A stretch of 64,000 nucleotides of DNA, from positions 7,316,001-7,380,000 of the forward strand of contig CM102283.1 in NCBI GenBank assembly GCA_046563655.1, read 5' to 3'. This DNA is from Yuukianura sp. NJ FZ-2021. Taxonomy: Eukaryota. The position numbers were made by a program, and so were the translations under genes. The notes beneath the pieces were generated by a model that saw nothing but the letters and a program-made list of their open reading frames with translations, was not told the DNA's origin and ran no database searches. Below are positions 26,562 through 59,000 of this stretch, piece by piece; position 1 is the stretch's first letter, and every line of letters begins with the position of its first letter.

Positions 26562-29500
26562 GGATGGTTTCGGATATCGATGCTACCTTTGAGGACGGAA
26601 ATGAACATGAAGGCGGTGGTACTACATCATGAAATTTTAGGATGAGCATCATATATCATCCAAGAAACTATGTTAAAAAATTTAGGATGGAGTACCACCG
26701 ATTAGTACCCTAAAAGTGTACCTAAAGTTGACTAGTTTTCTAAGGAAATAATCAAGTTTTTCTTGATTATTTCAACCCATTTAAATCATCCGGCTGGATG
26801 TAATTTTTACCACTGGGATGTGCACAATTCTCGGTTTCGTTTTTCGAAGCTGCACAATTTCAAACTTCGTGTTTTTGAGTTTATCTTGGACAATTTCTAA
26901 GTTTTGAGTGCGCATTGCTACGGAAACGGTTTTGGTGCATCAATGTTTGTTTATAAAAAAGTGCGATTTCTTGCTAAGACGTTTGGAAAGGTCAATTCAA
27001 TTTTGAGTTTTGAATAGTACGGACGTGTTTTGTTTTTGTGTTTAAAAAAGTTTGAGTAATTGAGTTTGGATAAAGTTTAATTAAAAGTTCTTATAAGAAC
27101 TAACTTTGTCAAATCAAAATGGGACGCTGGAAGTGTGGGAACTGTCTGCGAATGATAGCTTGCAACAAGCGGAAGTATGTATCGGAAGGAGATTCGATTT
27201 GTGCTAAATGCCAATGTGTTCTACGTAATTCATCAGGCTCAATTCATCGGAAGCTGCGAATGTGTGAGTACAATAAAAAAAAAAAGAAATACCCATTTTG
27301 CAAATTCTGAATTTATATTTACGTTATGACGATATGTTTTATAGCCATTGCTGCCAGTCAACCAGTTCTTCCCGTTTGTCCAGCGACCAGAAGCAAAAAT
27401 GTATCTACTTTTCCTTCTGTTTCGGCTGTAAGCGGTTCAACTGAGTCTTCTACATACTCAACTGAAGCCATGGATGCCGAGTCTAGCCAACATTCATCAA
27501 TTTCTAATGGTAAAACACTGAAACACAATGTTATCAAAGGAATCCAATCTGCAATCGATCCAAAAGAAATGCTGTGGGCATGCTCATGATGCAACTGAGG
27601 ATGAATCTCACCCAGAAACAATTGGCGTTCCTTTTTCGTGTCCCCAACATTTCTACAATTAGTGAAACTCTGGAGGCAGTTCTGGAGGCGCTGGAGAAGA
27701 CGTTCGTTCCAAAACACATTGGATTTCACCACATTTCTCGCAACGATTTGATTGCAAAGCACTCAGTTCCATCGTATAACAAACTTCTTCGAACCACAGC
27801 TCCAACTGATGATTCCGATGACGAGGATGATACTTACAGTAAGTTAATTCGCATTACATTTCATTTTATTACAACTGATTTTTAACGTTGGACTATATTA
27901 ACTATATTTAAACTATGCTTTAAATATTTAACATATTCTTTTAGTGGGCGATGATGTACTGAAGCTTATTTTCGACTGTACGTACCTCTACCACCAAAAA
28001 CCTTCCGACTTTGAACTTCAAAGGAAGACATTCTGCATGCATAAGGGGGCGAATTTGGTAAAACCGATGATGGTGGTTACGGAAACTGGATACATCTTAG
28101 AAGCCTCGGATGTCTACTTTTCTGATGCCGCCAACAACGACGCAGCGATACTCCAACATATGATGGACACTGGACCACTCCTAGACTTCTTCCAAGTTGG
28201 TGACCGAGCTATTTTCGATCGCGGTTTCAGGGACGTCGTGGATTTCACGGAAGGCCAGGCCATTTATCCACACATGCCCCCACTACTGCCGCGTGGTGCC
28301 AAGCAATTCTCGGATCTTGAAGCCAATACTTCTAGGTAATTGTAAATTGTATATTTACAATGTTCACTTCTTTTTTGAGTATCGTTTTCATAACTATAAC
28401 ATTTGTTTGAAATTTCAGACAAGTGACCATGATACGATGGGTTGTCGAGTCAGCCAATGGACGTGTAAAGAAAAAATTCTCCTTCTTTAGTGATGTCATC
28501 GAAGCGTCATACCTGCCGAAAATCGGAAGATTGTTCAGATTAGCCTGTGCTTTCATAAACGCATACTCGGGTCCTTTGTTCAAAGAGTCAGACGAACATG
28601 AAGAGATTGTTGACGACGCCATTGCCAGGATGCACGAAGAAAATGCGCTTCTCAAAATGCTGATGTCGGAAAACCTCCTAAGAAAACGTACGGGATGGAC
28701 TGAAGTTGGAGATTCCGCTGTTCCAGAGTTTCCCAAGTTAACAATGAGGGACCTGAAGATGCTGACTCTGGGTGTTTACCAAATTAAACTTGCCAAGCTT
28801 TACACAAATCAACACATGGCGAACTCCGCTGACTTCATGGTATTTTATGTGAAAAAAATAAATAACATGTAAAGCTAACCATTATATTAAACTGGATTAA
28901 TGATAATTTTGTTCTGGTTGTAGGTGTGGAAGCATGACACCAAGACAAACTTGCTCAAAGCCAAAATCCAGTCGAGGTTCACCAAGAATCGCAAGTACAA
29001 TACGTGGATTGAGTTTGAGCCGAACGGAGGAGGAGCTTCATCCGTCACTGGATACTATTGTTGCTGCTGGACGGGAGCAAGGACCCTCGGTACCTGTTCA
29101 CATGTGGCAACAATGTTGTACTTCCTCGGCTACAGACGACACCAAACTCAGATGACTCAAAAGAAGCGACGAGACCTATCCAGTTCAATTTTGACAGCAG
29201 AACGGACTGTCATTGAAGAGGCCAGTGATTCTACCAATACACAGGATGAATGAAAATACGAACACTGGTGACTCTGAACACTAAAAGGTTACATTTTTTA
29301 TGTTAGTCTTCAGTCTAAGTAGTCTTAAGTTCAATTCAATCTTCAGTTTAAGTCATTTACTTTTTCAATCATTTTTTCTTTTCTTTGTGCAAGCCGAGTA
29401 ATTGTAACTATATTTTCATACCCTTTCCTCTGTGGATGGGGTAAGCGGCTTGAATTGGTTGGGATCTCACACTAACGTGTGAGAGCAGAGGAAAGGATAG

Positions 29501-36031: not shown

Positions 36032-36567
36032 GGTTGAAGTAAACTTGGGCGGCCAGACTGTCCCCACCCGTTCAAATTTTCGCGCTGCTTCAATTGTACC
36101 CACCCAGTGTCCCCACCGGATGGATACATTTGTCCCCACCACAACCAAAAGCAGTACGTCCACCTAGCGGCAATACAGTAACCTCTGAATTCAAGCTGGC
36201 AACGTTCCCTTCCTTTTTGATTCGCTGAATCCTGTTATATTTTCCCGCGCCGAAGGCGCGGCGTTAGGTTTGGTTAAGCACGCAATCGTGATTACGTCTG
36301 TAGCTTTGGCTGACTGAGTTTCGCTATATTGATTCCATGTGCCATTGGTTGGTACAATGGAGCAATGGTACAACGTTGCCAGCTCGAATTCGCTAGTTCC
36401 ACTTCAGCCGCTAGGGGGACTCGGTGTCAGGCTGGTGGGTACAGATTTGTCCCCACCAAGTGGAGACATTTGTCCCCACCAGGTGGGGACAATGGGTGGG
36501 GACAATTGCAGCAGCGCGAAAATTTGAACGGGTGGGGACAGTCTGGCCGCTCAAGTTTACTTCGACC
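36032..36567. mobile_element. MITE with GG..CC ends and 8-bp TSD, related to 15398-16044
   Basis: TIRs GGTTGAAGTAAACTTGGGCGGCCAGACTGTCCCCACCCGTTCAAATTTTCGCGCTGC / reverse copy ending AAGTTTACTTCGACC; TSD CTTCTGTC at 36024-36031 and 36568-36575; shares internal TTTTCCCGCGCCGAAGGCGCGGCGTTAGGTT with the first MITE. Confidence 0.9.
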
Positions 36568-36708: not shown

Positions 36709-38350
36709 ATGTCTGTCCTCGGCGAAAATGGAGCTGGTAAGTTTTTGGTCGATTTTAATAAGTTGTTCGTTGTAGTGCCGTTGTTACAGTTATACTGCCA
36801 AACGTCGAGCTGAATCAGTAGTAGTACTCCGCCGTAATGTCGTTTACACGTAGATGTATGCGATTTGTTTTTGGGTCCTTCGGCAAGTGCTGTTCTTGTA
36901 GAAAGTTTCATGACGGCATGAATAGTAAGATGACTGACAATTATCTTTATAAAAGCATGATGAACTCAATTTTTTTTAAACTTTTACCGCAGATTTGAAT
37001 TCTACCCAGCAATACGTTGTACCCAGAAAGGAAGTCCTGGCACCAGCCGACTTGCAGAAGTGGATTAAATCGGAAGCGTACTACGTAAGCAAAAACATCT
37101 TGGAAAGTTGACTTTGCAACTTATAGTGGAAGGAAGTACAATGTGATGGACTTACATGTATAATATTTGAATTGCAGGAATATGTCAGTTTCCTGGAGTG
37201 TTTGAATGATGCAGTCCGTGGAAAATCGCAATCTCATCCTATTGTCGCATCCGACACAATTTCAATCTTGCTTGGTGTTCTGGAGAAACTTAGCGTTTGG
37301 ATTGACGAGATTCCTCCAATTGAACAACCTCAGAGATTTGGCAACAAGGCCTTTCGGACATGGTACGCCCGTTTGGCGGAACATTGTGAGCCTCTCCTGA
37401 AGTCAGCCTTTCCTGACAAGTTTCACGCCGCGGTTCCGGAAATATCAATTTACTTGACTGAAGGCTTCGGAAACTCAACGAGAATAGATTACGGCACAGG
37501 TCACGAGATGTCATTTGTCATGTTTCTGTACTGCATCTTTCGAATTGGTGCTCTCGATGTCAACAACACAGATGACAAGATAGCTGCCGTAACTCAAGTA
37601 TTCACTTCTTACATGACACTCGTTCGGAAACTCCAAGTTGTTTACCGCATGGAACCTGCTGGCAGTCACGGAGCATGGAGTTTAGACGATTACCAATTCG
37701 TTCCTTTCATTTGGGGAAGCAGTCAACTTGTTGGTGAGTTTTCAGTAACACGACTTAGTACCAAAATTTAAATAAAAGCGCCCATTTCGCTTAAAAATAA
37801 TTTTGTTTTAGCACATCCGAAATTGGAGCCCCGTAATTTTACTGATGAGGGAGTGATTCGTGAGAACATGTCGGACTACATGTTCTTTGGATGCTTGGAG
37901 TACATAACTCGAATGAAAACTGGACCATTTCATGAGCATTCCAGTCAACTCTGGAACATAAGGTGAAAAAAAAAAGTTTATTAAAGCCTCAAAGCAACTT
38001 TAAGTACGCAGTTTCTGTAATATTTCTTGTTATATTTTAGTGGAGCTCAATCCTGGACAAAGGTCAACCAGGGACTCCTGAAAATGTACAAAGCTGAAGT
38101 ATTGGGCAAATTTCCGGTGATTCAACATACCTTCTTCGGCAGTATTTTCTCTCTGAAAGAAGCAGTGCCCAAAGCTCCTGGTTCATCAGGTCCAGGATTC
38201 AGACGGCCATTACCAAAGTTTCCGTCAGCCCCAGCACCACCCACGGCTGCAACGGAAGCGAAACCACAAGAACCCGTGTCAGCATCACAAGCAACTGCTA
38301 CAGCGCCGGTGCCAACTGCTTTGCCTTCGAAAACTACTGATCTCAACTAA
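36709..38350 (+). CDS. PTPA: Serine/threonine-protein phosphatase 2A activator (PTPA/PPP2R4), 5 exons
   Basis: Exons 36709-36736, 36993-37084, 37178-37733, 37812-37962, 38041-38350. [101 protein letters not shown]. Confidence 0.97.
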
Positions 38351-38532
38351 ACCCAGTCATCTCTTCCGTAACAACATCAACATTAAATCAATCATGAAAT
38401 TCTTCGTTTCTCTCAATCCTGTTGCCTTCATGAACCTTCTCTTTTATTTTCTGTAATTGACATAATTTAATTTTATAAGTTCGTTAATTTATAATTTTGT
38501 GCTCAACAGGTTAGTAAGTTTATCACTAATGT

Positions 38533-39713
38533 TCAAATTTTGAACACTTCACATTTTCCTGACAGCATTGTCAGTGCAAACACTGCTGCACCAGCCGCTG
38601 ACACTGCGATAACACTCCAAAGGAATCCCCAGCACTGAGCACTGCCACAAACTTCTTCAGCGAACATCACAGCATCAGACTTTCCCTGCGTGCTGTTGCT
38701 AATCCTCTTGCAAAGAACATCGTTGATGCAATCGTACAAGGCATGCAAAGTACAAATCGTCCCAACAACCAACATACAATATCGAATTGGATGTACTGGC
38801 ATTTCTTCAACCATTTCTTCCAGAACCCAAAGTCCTGCTGGAATACAAGCAAGCAACACGATCAAGATTCTCATCGTTAGTGAAAAGGCACAACGGAGAC
38901 CACAGATACGTTTTTCCTAAAAAGTAAGACAAGATATATAAAATTTATCAATTATAAACTGATTAATCAATTAACATGTACAGCAAAACCTCTCATTCGG
39001 AAACTTTTTTTAGTTCACGTGACTGTCGCATTCTGAAAAAAAAGTTAACTTTATAATAAGATGCCAACTTTACAGAAATAAGCTGTAGACACTTTGGCTG
39101 GTCCATTGTGCTCAGAAACGTTTTGGTGTCGCGAAAAACGTTTTGAACCAACGGACCAATCAGAGCGAGTTTCCAAATGAGAGGTTTTACTGTATGTATG
39201 CCTTACCTCGACTTTTAGGATAAGCGCCGTGACTAGACAGGAAATCATGAACACCACTGCGGCAATTTGTGTTGGCAACCTGTCCCATGTCATCAAAATG
39301 AAAAACGAACCCCAGACGACACTGCCAGTATAACCAGCAGACAGAATAATCCAGCGACTTCCGCCTCTGCTCAACGTTACTCCTCCATAGCTGTCGTTCA
39401 CTCTAATTCCAGAAACTTTTCCACAGGTAAGCCAAGTAGCACTGGCATGTGAAAATTCATGTAGAAAAACTGCAACTAATTTAATTGGGGCTAAAATTGC
39501 AGATCGCCACAGAAATCCCGTCACGATAATGGTCACTCCAATGACAATCAATCCCTCAAGCTGTCGATTGTTGCAGCAGCAAATGCCCTGCTTGTCCACC
39601 ACTTCGACTCCACCGAATTGAATCCGAAGTGCTTCTGCTGCCGGAGTATAATTGTGACTCTGATGCTCAAACTCACTGTGGCCATTGCTCGTCAAATTTT
39701 CGCCCGCCAACAT
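38533..39713 (-). CDS. Peptidase M50B-like multi-pass membrane metalloprotease, 2 exons (39713-39207, 38916-38533)
   Basis: LWRSAILAPIKLVAVFLHEFSHA (HExxH), LTCGKVSGIRV..GGVTLSRGG..WIILSAGYTGSVVWG, ALYDCINDVLCKRI..SDAVMFAE..C....WGFLW. The intron gag|gtaag...ttttag|gaa joins the exons in frame. Confidence 0.85.
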
Positions 39714-43315: not shown

Positions 43316-44668
43316 TTATACCTTCATGGTAAGCACACGCTGATGGTAGCGATCATGACTACTGTAGCAAGGGCTGCAGAGATCTTTGGTAGTTGTTTTT
43401 GACACTTTGTCTCCCACTGGAAGCGAATCGAACGGTGATCGCTGATTGGCGTAGGAAAGGAGGTCAGGCGAAGACATTGAACGGACTAGTCCAGTCGTTC
43501 CGGTCGCTCCACTCCCCTTGCTAAATGAAAAGTACTGGACGAGATTTGTGATTTTGTCCAAGTCGAGGTCCATGGCCGTCTCTTGCTCATGCTCCTCATC
43601 GCTGCTACTGCAACTCCCATTGGAAGATGGAACACGACGATCATTTTTCTCTTTCTCCACGACAATGTCAGGATCATAACTCTCGAAATCGTCATCTTCG
43701 AATAGGAACGGCGATGCATCGGCCTCTGCCGATTCTTCTTCGGTTTCCTCAAACTGGGATTTCTTCGTTCGGAAGTTGAAGTTGTTTCCCTTGAAAGTGA
43801 AGAATGGCTCGAGCGGGGTTCGGTTAGCAGAAGAATTGTAGTTTGACGTGGTAGAAATCGACATCAACATTGAAGTACCGGCCGGAATTGTGTTCTCTTT
43901 GCTATCGCAAGTTGCACGGAAAGTGTAGTTCTCGCTCAGAGCAAAACGAAATCTTTTCGTTCCAAAGTAGGTGGAATTGTTATTAAAAACTCCCGAATCT
44001 TCTTCATCGACATCGCTTTCCTCAGCATCGTAGGTCCAATCTCGACGGCGCTTACAGGAAGGAGCTGAGGCTGCGTACTTAAGCTGGCTATGGCTCATGT
44101 CACTTGACGTCATCACATCAGCTGATAGGCTGCTAACCAGTGCTTCGGCCGAAGCCTGGTCCAAATCCAGGTACGTAATTGACTTTGACGGAGACTCCGA
44201 CGACAAGCCCTCAGCAAATTCAGCCAGGATTAGTTCAGCCGTGGTTCGATTCTCATCTTCAGACGCAGTTCCGTTCCCCCTGAGGGTAAATTCCACATCC
44301 ACGACATCCGGAATTCCGCCCATCTTTTCCACACAGTTGAGGATGTCACTTGGTAGATCCATTTCTGTTCCATCGAGTTGAAAGAGAGCTCGGGAGTCTA
44401 GGAGAGCAGCTTGATCCTCTTCACTAATCGGTTCAGAGAAGGACAAAAGCTTCGAAGCACCGGTTGATGAAGACTGAGCTGGGAAAATTTCAGTGTCGTC
44501 AGTGCAAACAGTGAGACCGTCCAAAGTGATGTAAGCGGATCGAGCTTTTGTGAGAACCGATGAAATTAGAAGATGCTTGTGCAGACTGGTGCCACCGCGG
44601 CGAAGGCCTCTTGATTCCGCAATTTTTGTCAAAGACATGCTGATCACCTTCTCTACCTCGGCTTTCAT
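43316..44668 (-). CDS. Immediate early response (IER) family protein, intronless CDS, 450 aa
   Basis: N-terminus EVEKVISMSLTKIAESRGLRRGGTSLHKHLLISSVLTKARSAY matches the IER2/IER5 N-terminal block; C-terminal MDLDLDKITNLVQYFSF matches the IER C-terminal block; acidic disordered middle. Confidence 0.85.
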   Translation of the reverse strand: MKAEVEKVISMSLTKIAESRGLRRGGTSLHKHLLISSVLTKARSAYITLDGLTVCTDDTEIFPAQSSSTGASKLLSFSEPISEEDQAALLDSRALFQLDGTEMDLPSDILNCVEKMGGIPDVVDVEFTLRGNGTASEDENRTTAELILAEFAEGLSSESPSKSITYLDLDQASAEALVSSLSADVMTSSDMSHSQLKYAASAPSCKRRRDWTYDAEESDVDEEDSGVFNNNSTYFGTKRFRFALSENYTFRATCDSKENTIPAGTSMLMSISTTSNYNSSANRTPLEPFFTFKGNNFNFRTKKSQFEETEEESAEADASPFLFEDDDFESYDPDIVVEKEKNDRRVPSSNGSCSSSDEEHEQETAMDLDLDKITNLVQYFSFSKGSGATGTTGLVRSMSSPDLLSYANQRSPFDSLPVGDKVSKTTTKDLCSPCYSSHDRYHQRVLTMKV

Positions 44669-45889
44669 TTCCTTTCACCCAGAAAATGGCGGGCTTTCCA
44701 AAAATCTGAAAACCAAGAACATTCTCCTTCAGTCTCTCCACGATATCGTAAATTTTGAGCCTTTCCATTTCAAAAAACGTAGGTTTAGTCTTCCGTCAGA
44801 GTTAAAAAGCTCAATTTGAAAAGAAATCAACACGTTAAGATTCAGTGTTGGATCTCATCTATCATCATTGAAGACCAAACCGGAAAATTCGTTCTCTCCG
44901 TTATGCTTGACGTTCCTTAGACGATTTCCGGCCGAATCAAAACCAACTTCGGTTTTCAACTCACCAAAATTGAAGGAACTGCGTAGCCTGTGTCTCCTCG
45001 ACGTTTTGTTCGAAAAGTCGCAAATGTAATTTCCCCGATCCACTTACGCTGCAACCGGACTGTAAAAAAATGAACAATAATTGTTATAAACAAACACTAA
45101 TTGCTCAACTAGAAGAAGACTGTCCTTGATCTCTCAGAGGTGATTTAGAGTTCAGTTGGAAGTGGTTGAGCGGCTAAACTAAAAGTAGCAGAGCAGTTTA
45201 TCGCTGAATCGACTTTCAACTAAACTCTAAATTTGTCACGCCGCCCCTGTCAATCCACCACCCAATCCAATCGGTGTCTAATATCATCTCATCAAATCAG
45301 TCAGAACATTTACCCATCGTCAGAAGTTGACTTTTAGTTTTATCATCACATGACTTATTGAATTCGTTTTCCGTCAAAAACTATAAACTATCCCATAGCA
45401 GGAATAAAAGTAGTAAAAAATTAAATTTAGACAATTGCATTAAAATTATTCGTAACTTAAACTTAACGCTGCTAACTTTGTTATTTTGTATAAACTCAAA
45501 CTGGGGGGAATACAAGACAGACAGACGGGATGGGATGATGGGAACCGAATGAAAAAACCACGCCAAGGTCACGTTTCCGACATTAAGTTTAAGCTTCCAG
45601 GAGCCGAGAGCTGTGCCTCCTGGTTAGATTAGGCAATAGCTTAATCTACTCCTAAGCAAAAGAAAAACCGGGTTTCATTTGGAGATCATACTCCAAAAAG
45701 AGTTTAGATTAAGCTAATTTTTGGTTTAGCTTTAATCCCATTTTCGGTTCGCAAACGGAGAGCAGCGGACAGCGTTCCCAGTGGGAACTTGCTCCTAAGG
45801 GAGACGGCTGTGAGTTCAAAACCTGCAGCAGATGTAATTTTTTTTTTATTTTGTCAGAACGTGCCTACTCATATAATATTGCCTTTCAG

Positions 45890-57552: not shown

Positions 57553-59000
57553 TCAAGGTTCTTCTTCTACTTTTGAGGTTGGTTTGACCCCTGCTTGCGT
57601 CATAATGGGATTGTCGTTGCCATTTGAAACGACTTTTAAAGGTTTGGCATGTTTGATTAGTGGCGGTGGATCAATCAAAGCATTTTTGCGAAACATTTCC
57701 CTGACCTCTTCAAGTGTATGATTGTTACTGAGTTCTTCGGCGTTCAAAACAGGAAACACAGCGGAACATGGAAAATTTGTTGTCGAAATTGCCCACTCCT
57801 TCGGTAGACGCAAACTCATGATCAACCGAATTTCTCGGATGATGTCTGCACAGAAGTCGTCTAGCGGCTGAAGTTCAAAAATTGTTAAAGATTCAAGTAA
57901 AAAATTTCTCCAATTTACAAAATTTTGCAAAATTTTGATTTCCTACCAAGTCATTGTCATCATATCCAAACGGATTTTCAATTTCCTCTCCGATTCCCAG
58001 TATTCCCAGAATTGCAAAACAGGCAATCACGACAATTGGCACAGTTAGCCAACCCAGGTCATGGACCAATTGAAACGGAAGTGCCAAAATGTAAATGTGC
58101 AAACAGTGACCAAGGTGGCGGGAGTAGGCTAAGGGCATCGGAGTCCTCAAAATCTTTTCAAATGAACATAAGTAGTCCCCCAAGGCAGAAACGGCTAAAA
58201 GTTCAATCAAAAGCAGAATCTGAATTAGAATGAAAAATTTGAATGTTCAACACAAACTGTGAAATTCTTACATTCCTGCAAAACTTTCATGACATTCTGG
58301 TCAGCCATGCCCTTTTCAGTGATTTTGTCCAGATAGGCTCCAATGTAGTAAGTGATTAAACAAGGGGAATTCGACGGAGCAACAAAATCAGGAATTTCTT
58401 CTTGCCTTGCTCCTGCCGGCGCATGAGCATTGGCCATGATTGCTTTGACTCGATTTGGGGCTGGTTTCAAAAGGACTTCTGGAAATCCATAGACATACGG
58501 CTTCATGTCTTCAAAGTCCTGCGAATACTCGTTGCGCAAATAATGTTTTGTTGCAAGTGGAAACGCTGTCAGTAGATTCATAATTGTTTTCTTTTCAACC
58601 AAATCTTTGGTATCAGAGTCCTTGATGCTGATCCATACTAAACGAGCTAAAGTTCCAACTGTACTGCCCAAAGATGTCCACAAATTCCGTCCTTCCCAGT
58701 ACCTTTCAAAATTTTCAAAAAAAAAATTTTTTTTGAATTCAAAATTGAAAGTCTTCAACTTTCAACTTTTTTTTACCTGTCGTATGCAATTTGTGTCCGA
58801 AAAACCAAGAGAAGACCAGTAACGATACCCAGGATATCCGTAAGGTCAATGCGCAGACTCGTTTCAGCAAAACTCGGAACTGACAAATAAATTCCACAAA
58901 CGACTGCAGTGTATATACCAACCAGAATTATTTTGAACCAAATCCGCTTAAGTACTGTTCCCTTCAACAGTTCCTGGAAAATACTTCCTGCTGGCAGCAT
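57553..59000 (-). CDS. Bestrophin-like anion channel of the YneE/UPF0187 (microbial, fungal, plant) type, 4 exons
   Basis: Exons 59000-58777, 58702-58272, 58194-57947, 57867-57553 splice in frame. GLLLVFRTQIAYDRYWEGRNLW, AFPLATKHYLR, EKILRTPMPLAYSRHL, LALPFQLV, GILGIGEEIENPFGYDDNDLPLDDFC. Confidence 0.92.

Follow-up and report, generated by a model that had tools for sequence, protein, structure and literature searches.

The analysed window is a stretch of 64,000 nucleotides from Yuukianura sp. NJ FZ-2021 (GCA_046563655.1, contig CM102283.1, positions 7,316,001 to 7,380,000). Its minus strand carries, from 39713 to 38533, a two-exon gene encoding a protein of 296 amino acids, referred to here as the M50B gene, whose spliced frame has no internal stop. 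Exon 1 (39207..39713, codons 1-169) encodes the CCCN motif, the first transmembrane helix, the HExxH helix, a beta hairpin, the AGY motif and further transmembrane helices, as assigned from the motifs, the Pfam match and, for the secondary structure, the model of the Folsomia orthologue. The intron (38917..39206) is a 290-nt GT..AG intron in phase 0. Exon 2 (38533..38916, codons 170-296 and the stop) contains a clade-specific insertion, the YDxxxD helix, the SDA motif with D250 and the last transmembrane helix. The protein carries CCCN at residues 45-48, HEFSH at 85-89, AGYTGS, YD at 230-231 and SDA..FAE at 249-256; on the minus strand, the codons of H85, E86 and H89 lie at 39461-39447 and the SDA..FAE motif at 38679-38662. 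Both exons match the family PF13398 (Peptidase_M50B) above its curated cut-off of 26 bits, exon 1 with 96.1 bits (E=3e-27) and exon 2 with 32.4 bits (E=1e-7). The first-pass annotation of this DNA had described an intact two-exon HExxH membrane protein of the Peptidase_M50B type beside PTPA, and the unbroken frame, the motifs it quoted and both Pfam matches bear this description out.

The gene is present in a single copy, and the search of the 98.7 Mb, 22-contig genome with exon 1 returned one match, the M50B gene itself. As the first approximately 25 codons show no conservation among homologues, the ATG at 39713 is taken as a putative start, and a further exon may exist upstream. Nine of the 40 variants listed (506 more exist) fall within the coding sequence. 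Seven of these nine are synonymous, and the other two alter codons 7 and 9 in the unconserved N-terminus.

Convergent with the M50B gene lies the native arthropod PTPA gene (36994..38350, plus strand, 5′ limit approximate; PF03095, E=1.5e-69). The two genes are arranged tail-to-tail, with 182 bp separating their stop codons. The PTPA matches that bear species names, among the 120 matches listed, are all animals, mostly arthropods, and in a tree of a single PTPA exon the window copy groups loosely with Orchesella, JGI records and one psyllid (89/70, weak). This tree, together with the M50B tree itself, is the basis for regarding the host as springtail-like. Further genes of the window match the CD36, IER and peroxiredoxin families. 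The M50B gene is therefore physically linked to host genes, and this arrangement bears on the possibility that the assembly of the sequenced animal was contaminated by a gregarine. Gregarines are common as co-bionts, and a fly assembly holds one related record on a contig of 34 kb; such contamination is nevertheless effectively refuted by the arthropod genes flanking M50B and by an independent contig (X3 record 18, 37803-38926), which differs by 27 substitutions and joins the 3′ exons of PTPA to M50B exon 2. The intron also carries a genomic repeat, a MITE-like element of 216 bp (38979..39194) with 27-nt terminal inverted repeats, arms that are 93% complementary and TA on both sides. In addition, M50B orthologues in five other named species sit on contigs of 1.6-193 Mb, and in the metagenome locus L004 the orthologue adjoins an exon which we take to be Robo-like.

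Several minor features surround these genes. In the alignment of independent contigs, loose ends occur at 39155 and 39194 within the M50B intron, and contigs of the X2 and X3 sets show a 142-nt internal skip inside the MITE-like intron element. Upstream of PTPA lies a high-copy MITE-like element of approximately 540 bp (36032-36567) with 108-nt inverted arms; one X2 contig skips it, which indicates that the insertion is polymorphic. A single long frame at 43316-44674 (minus) begins with the IER domain (E=1.4e-9), and a DDE_Tnp_4 transposase is spread over several frames at 27514-28872 (plus).

PTPA was not seen beside the gene in the other loci compared. Comparison of the whole window with 10 loci by tblastx matched no PTPA; the animal-like loci with useful flanking sequence in this comparison were L004 (11.9 kb) and L005 (4.3 kb). 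A functional link between M50B and PTPA was rejected, because no PTPA was seen beside M50B in either of these two genomic loci. The M50B gene as a divergent site-2 protease (S2P) was likewise ruled out, as the genome holds its own S2P elsewhere (G000:C1, approximately 2.59 Mb). That native gene bears both HExxH and NxxPxxxxDG; the second motif is absent from the M50B protein, which has no DG dipeptide anywhere in its sequence. The distinction from the animal S2P/MBTPS2 drawn in the first-pass annotation is thereby upheld.

The conservation of the motifs allows the active site to be predicted. Among 148 near-full homologues, H85, H89 and D250 are invariant, E86 is kept in 147, and G111, G127 and G130 are invariant or nearly so. 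Conservation is lower at D231 and D235 (138 and 135 of the 148 rows), and D250 is therefore the best candidate for the third zinc ligand. The accessible part of PMC5249076 describes HExxH, a downstream conserved Gly, a conserved Asp and no NPDG, which matches D250 as the suggested ligand. The structural model is that of the Folsomia orthologue (pLDDT 82.5), standing in for the window protein, and it shows seven long helices with a two-strand hairpin after the HExxH helix. Its top Foldseek match is MjS2P (3B4R, E=0.035). When the model was compared by VIA with 48,161 chains, S2P-family enzymes took four of the top five places, with Z 5.4-6.8, under the reliable range; RseP reached Z 6.8 (rmsd 4.2, 119 aligned), SpoIVFB 6.2 (4.5, 115) and MjS2P 5.4 (5.0, 128), all under Z 8. 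A search of PDB sequences with the M50B protein gave 0 matches, and no solved PF13398 structure was found. With the site-2 proteases (MjS2P 3B4R, RseP 7W6Z/9J83, SpoIVFB 8VJL, MBTPS2) the protein has in common the membrane-embedded HExxH, the beta hairpin and a distal Asp; unlike them, it has neither NxxPxxxxDG nor a PDZ domain. In the proposed mechanism, H85, H89 and D250 would serve as zinc ligands, with E86 activating water within the bilayer, and the hairpin following the HExxH helix would hold the unwound substrate strand, as in S2P and RseP. Such zinc-dependent intramembrane cleavage is predicted, and we consider it likely. The best guess for the role, a tentative one, is a putative housekeeping cleavage of membrane-anchored peptides, presumably in the secretory pathway and alongside the native S2P, because members of the family occur from bacteria to plants and lack PDZ and sensor domains. 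The classification of M50 peptidases is treated in PMC5939537 and bioRxiv 101204, as far as their accessible text goes.

The relatives of the protein were collected by several searches. A search for homologues with exon 1 gave 14 matches from 197 candidates, the named ones being Folsomia and three gregarines. The full HMMER scan gave 1061 matches at E<=0.001, of which the top three scored 237, 166 and 157 bits, followed by a drop to 119. The profile search, considered for the best 120 of its 167 matches, added a second Lankesteria copy, Gregarina and Porospora; it missed four of its own 15 query sequences (P0023, P0028, P0057, P0183), so the recovery of homologues is lossy. Thirty cluster look-ups yielded Orchesella dallaii, Bradysia coprophila, B. 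odoriphaga, Pseudolycoriella hygida, Condylostylus, Rhytidocystis, Plasmodium, plants and Parmales, and the ESM Atlas returned generic PF13398 clusters. A mention of 'M50B' in Taenia (accessible part of PMC4070553) was set aside, since it follows the MEROPS subfamily naming and concerns another family.

The named animal carriers are springtails, three sciarid flies and one doubtful record of the fly Condylostylus. Among the matches that bear names, in a lossy search with many nameless matches, no other animal phylum was found; the same named matches include no further insects and no annelid, tunicate or crustacean copy. Orthologues across many unrelated animal phyla, which the first-pass annotation had held to speak against a foreign origin, are thus not seen among the named matches. 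Its view of a gene particular to one lineage has to be given up, as other springtails and sciarid flies also carry the orthologue. The doubtful record (P0028, labelled Condylostylus longicornis) lies on a 34-kb contig and branches at the base of the hexapod group. It may belong to the fly itself, to springtail prey or to a parasite; for Condylostylus, the accessible part of the FCS-GX preprint names bacterial contamination alone.

Identity to the window protein was compared over 237 columns. The uncharacterised orthologues of Folsomia candida (LOC110843832) and Orchesella dallaii (CAL8103146) are 67% identical and have the same motifs and both insertions described below; relative to them, the N-terminus of the window gene is longer. 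Among the sciarids (Bradysia coprophila LOC119075615, B. odoriphaga, Pseudolycoriella hygida), the two compared reach 71%, and here the carriers are flies. The nearest named non-animal relatives are gregarine apicomplexans at 43-58%: the two Selenidium species (58/58%), the two copies carried by Lankesteria (52/51%), Porospora (47%) and Gregarina (43%). These M50B-like proteins, mostly transcriptome records, have both insertions and fall in the same clade. Lower values are found for Parmales and one plant-clade row (38% each), Rhytidocystis (34%), Plasmodium vivax (32%) and fungi (25-32%). The gregarine copies differ more among themselves (43-70%) than the hexapod copies do (67-93%).

Two insertions mark a group of hexapod, gregarine and Parmales-type proteins among the 148 near-full homologues, window included. 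The first lengthens the D231-D250 span, which measures 19-21 in all 24 rows of the group versus 15 in 105 of the 124 other rows. The second concerns the GY-GT span, which measures 92-99 in the group; only two of the 124 other rows reach 92. A mixture-model tree of 21 rows gives 100/100 to the split between hexapods, gregarines and Parmales on one side and the plant-clade, Plasmodium and fungal rows on the other, and quick trees of 73 and 46 rows recover this split at 93 and 99. The canonical PF13398 proteins of plants, fungi and Plasmodium (e.g. PBANKA_1362500, the Plasmodium protein being called putative and still to be studied in the accessible part of PMC5249076) have HExxH, GY, YDxxxD, SDA and the lack of NPDG in common with the window protein; they are without both insertions, show 25-38% identity and form a separate clade. 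Membership of the M50B gene in this gregarine-type subclade is well supported by the compared sequences. Parmales-type marine members (L007 7929-8845; P0183, P0186, P0024) have both insertions and, for the most part, xQHE preceding the second His; they carry an intron at another position.

The placement of the gene was examined with AU tests. The first run, of 36 rows, used fast constrained searches and included long-branch bacterial rows; here, grouping of the hexapods with the canonical clade was not rejected (p=0.41). For the LG run, seven of the 36 rows were dropped (P0215, P0239, P0020, P0057, P0046, P0208, P0094), and the mixture-model run used the 21 rows of the tree. Hexapods with a fungus, represented by one fungal row, were rejected under both models (p=1e-4 under LG, p=3e-4 under the mixture model). 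A plant or fungal donor is ruled out by identity, indels and tree. The first-pass annotation had called the gene plant/protist-like and typical of plants and fungi among others: the protist side of this reading holds and is narrowed to the gregarine-type subclade, and the plant or fungal side falls, with identities of 25-38% and no insertions. Its main claim, a foreign gene domesticated in the animal, is sustained by the M50B match, the separate native S2P, the animal neighbourhood, the integration in other springtail assemblies and the rejected opisthokont grouping.

The same evidence makes vertical descent of an ancient eukaryotic paralogue, lost in nearly all other opisthokonts, very improbable. 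In its favour, members of the family are found widely among eukaryotes and bacteria, and those of the subclade in animals as well as two SAR lineages. It would nevertheless demand very many independent losses, and the 58% identity to Selenidium exceeds the 25-42% found among Plasmodium, plant-clade and fungal copies themselves; in addition, sciarids group with Folsomia rather than outside the springtails (97/94).

Gregarines are single-celled gut parasites of invertebrates, and the hosts of the sampled gregarines are marine invertebrates and insects. On balance, the probable reading is that the M50B gene, a predicted seven-helix intramembrane zinc endopeptidase, was acquired once by a springtail ancestor, through transfer from a eukaryote of the gregarine-type subclade, with a gregarine gut parasite as the likeliest donor, and has been retained ever since. 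The AU tests did not reject gregarines plus Parmales standing apart from the hexapods (p=0.45 under LG, p=0.51 under the mixture model), and the direction is therefore inferred from the distribution, in which the gene spans four genera on the gregarine side, with more diversity than among the hexapods, and a single class plus a single fly family on the animal side. In the mixture tree, hexapod monophyly itself receives weak support (36/79). It is unlikely that host sequences contaminated the gregarine transcriptomes, because the two Selenidium species pair at 99/99, the Lankesteria copies stay together as well, and annelids, tunicates and crustaceans are absent from the named carriers. The four genera and the Selenidium pairing are as expected for genuine parasite genes.

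The gregarine copies (P0007, P0008, P0010, P0185, P0187, P0190) are non-orthologous to the Plasmodium/Rhytidocystis copy (P0038, P0048). A single clade of all alveolate copies was rejected (p=9e-10, LG); relative to the Plasmodium gene, the gregarine one is therefore paralogous or xenologous, and gregarines, too, may have received it by transfer. A clade made up of gregarines alone was marginally rejected (0.03), because Gregarina attracts Parmales. Conceivable, yet improbable, is a reverse or shared origin, in which an early animal host passed the gene to gregarines or a third source supplied both, and most animals lost it or never had it. This would agree with the lack of orthology to the core apicomplexan gene, with the short hexapod branches of the mixture tree and with the weakly placed internal root. 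It fits poorly with named animal carriers limited to springtails, sciarids and one doubtful fly record, and with Selenidium, Lankesteria, Porospora and Gregarina being the more diverse side.

A more serious alternative, still rather unlikely, is transfer into springtails from another, unsampled protist, with gregarines merely the nearest sequenced relatives. As the subclade also occurs in Parmales and protist-like records, such a protist could be the donor: its distribution in protists is patchy (Parmales P0183, locus L007, P0023, P0024, P0057, P0188), the sister position to gregarines survives the AU tests, and about a quarter of the foreign genes of Folsomia were assigned to protists (accessible part of PMC5490193). 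The top non-animal identities among named records are nevertheless gregarine, versus 38% for Parmales, and gregarines inhabit basal hexapods, which according to the accessible part of PMC6955108 are parasitised by at least six gregarine genera, at that time without sequence data. A gregarine donor thus stays the preferred reading.

The sciarid copies raise the possibility of a further step. Sciarids group with Folsomia at 97/94 in the mixture tree and with SH-aLRT 94.7 and bootstrap 98 in another tree. Springtail monophyly excluding them is borderline, with p=0.11 (36 rows), 0.039 (LG) and 0.087 (mixture). These values are suggestive only of a second, animal-to-animal hop from springtails to fungus gnats. 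Introns offer additional markers. Two phase-0 introns interrupt the gene in the animal-like metagenome loci L004 and L005; in the window gene the first is missing and the second persists at the same position. Read-through fragments in or beside the sciarid clusters end at those same two intron positions. The record P0011, whose two exons place outside the hexapod clade, reads through at both positions, and this lead hints that the introns predate the transfer, i.e., came from the donor. A two-step chain, in which an early springtail would acquire the intron-bearing gene from a gregarine gut parasite and the fungus gnat ancestor would later receive it, introns included, from an isotomid-like springtail, is possible, and we propose it tentatively. 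A close relative in L008 (600-1093; 78% over residues 23-109) is likewise without the first intron, and an in-frame stop just 5′ of its conserved start hints at an exon upstream. L002 and L003 align over the intron positions without large gaps and resemble spliced transcripts of relatives.

The M50B gene is a domesticated foreign gene of a known family, in an animal group known for such genes; what sets it apart is that its donor appears to be a gregarine and that it may have made a second hop, to flies. Foreign genes are common in springtails and have mostly been attributed to bacteria, fungi and unspecified protists. The accessible part of PMC5490193 reports 809 foreign genes in Folsomia, 24.6% of them from protists. 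Those genes are likewise foreign and domesticated in Collembola; in the present case the donor side is an apicomplexan parasite lineage. The Folsomia orthologue may be among the 809, but the main text of PMC5490193, as far as accessible, does not mention gregarine, apicomplex or M50, and the searchable part of its supplements 1 and 3 gave no relevant M50 entry. No paper on gregarine-to-springtail transfer was found in the literature searched, in which subscription papers are few. Terpene synthases were likely passed from mites to Sciaridae (accessible part of PMC11665903), which also involves soil arthropods and Sciaridae; the M50B sciarids group with springtails, not mites. Cell-wall enzymes are abundant in Folsomia as well as in Bradysia (accessible part of PMC12198962).

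If the favoured reading is true, a gene of an apicomplexan gut parasite was fixed in its host, which would mean that extracellular gut parasites can reach the germ line, and it would prompt a re-screen of the 'protist' transfers of soil arthropods against gregarine data. The sciarid copy offers a testable case of animal-to-animal transfer, and Bradysia and Folsomia are laboratory animals in which PF13398 can be studied. Elsewhere in the window, at 57553-58761 (minus), lies a multi-exon bestrophin of bacterial/fungal type (Pfam Bestrophin_2, E=4e-28 and 7e-13), probably the other transfer candidate of the first-pass annotation.
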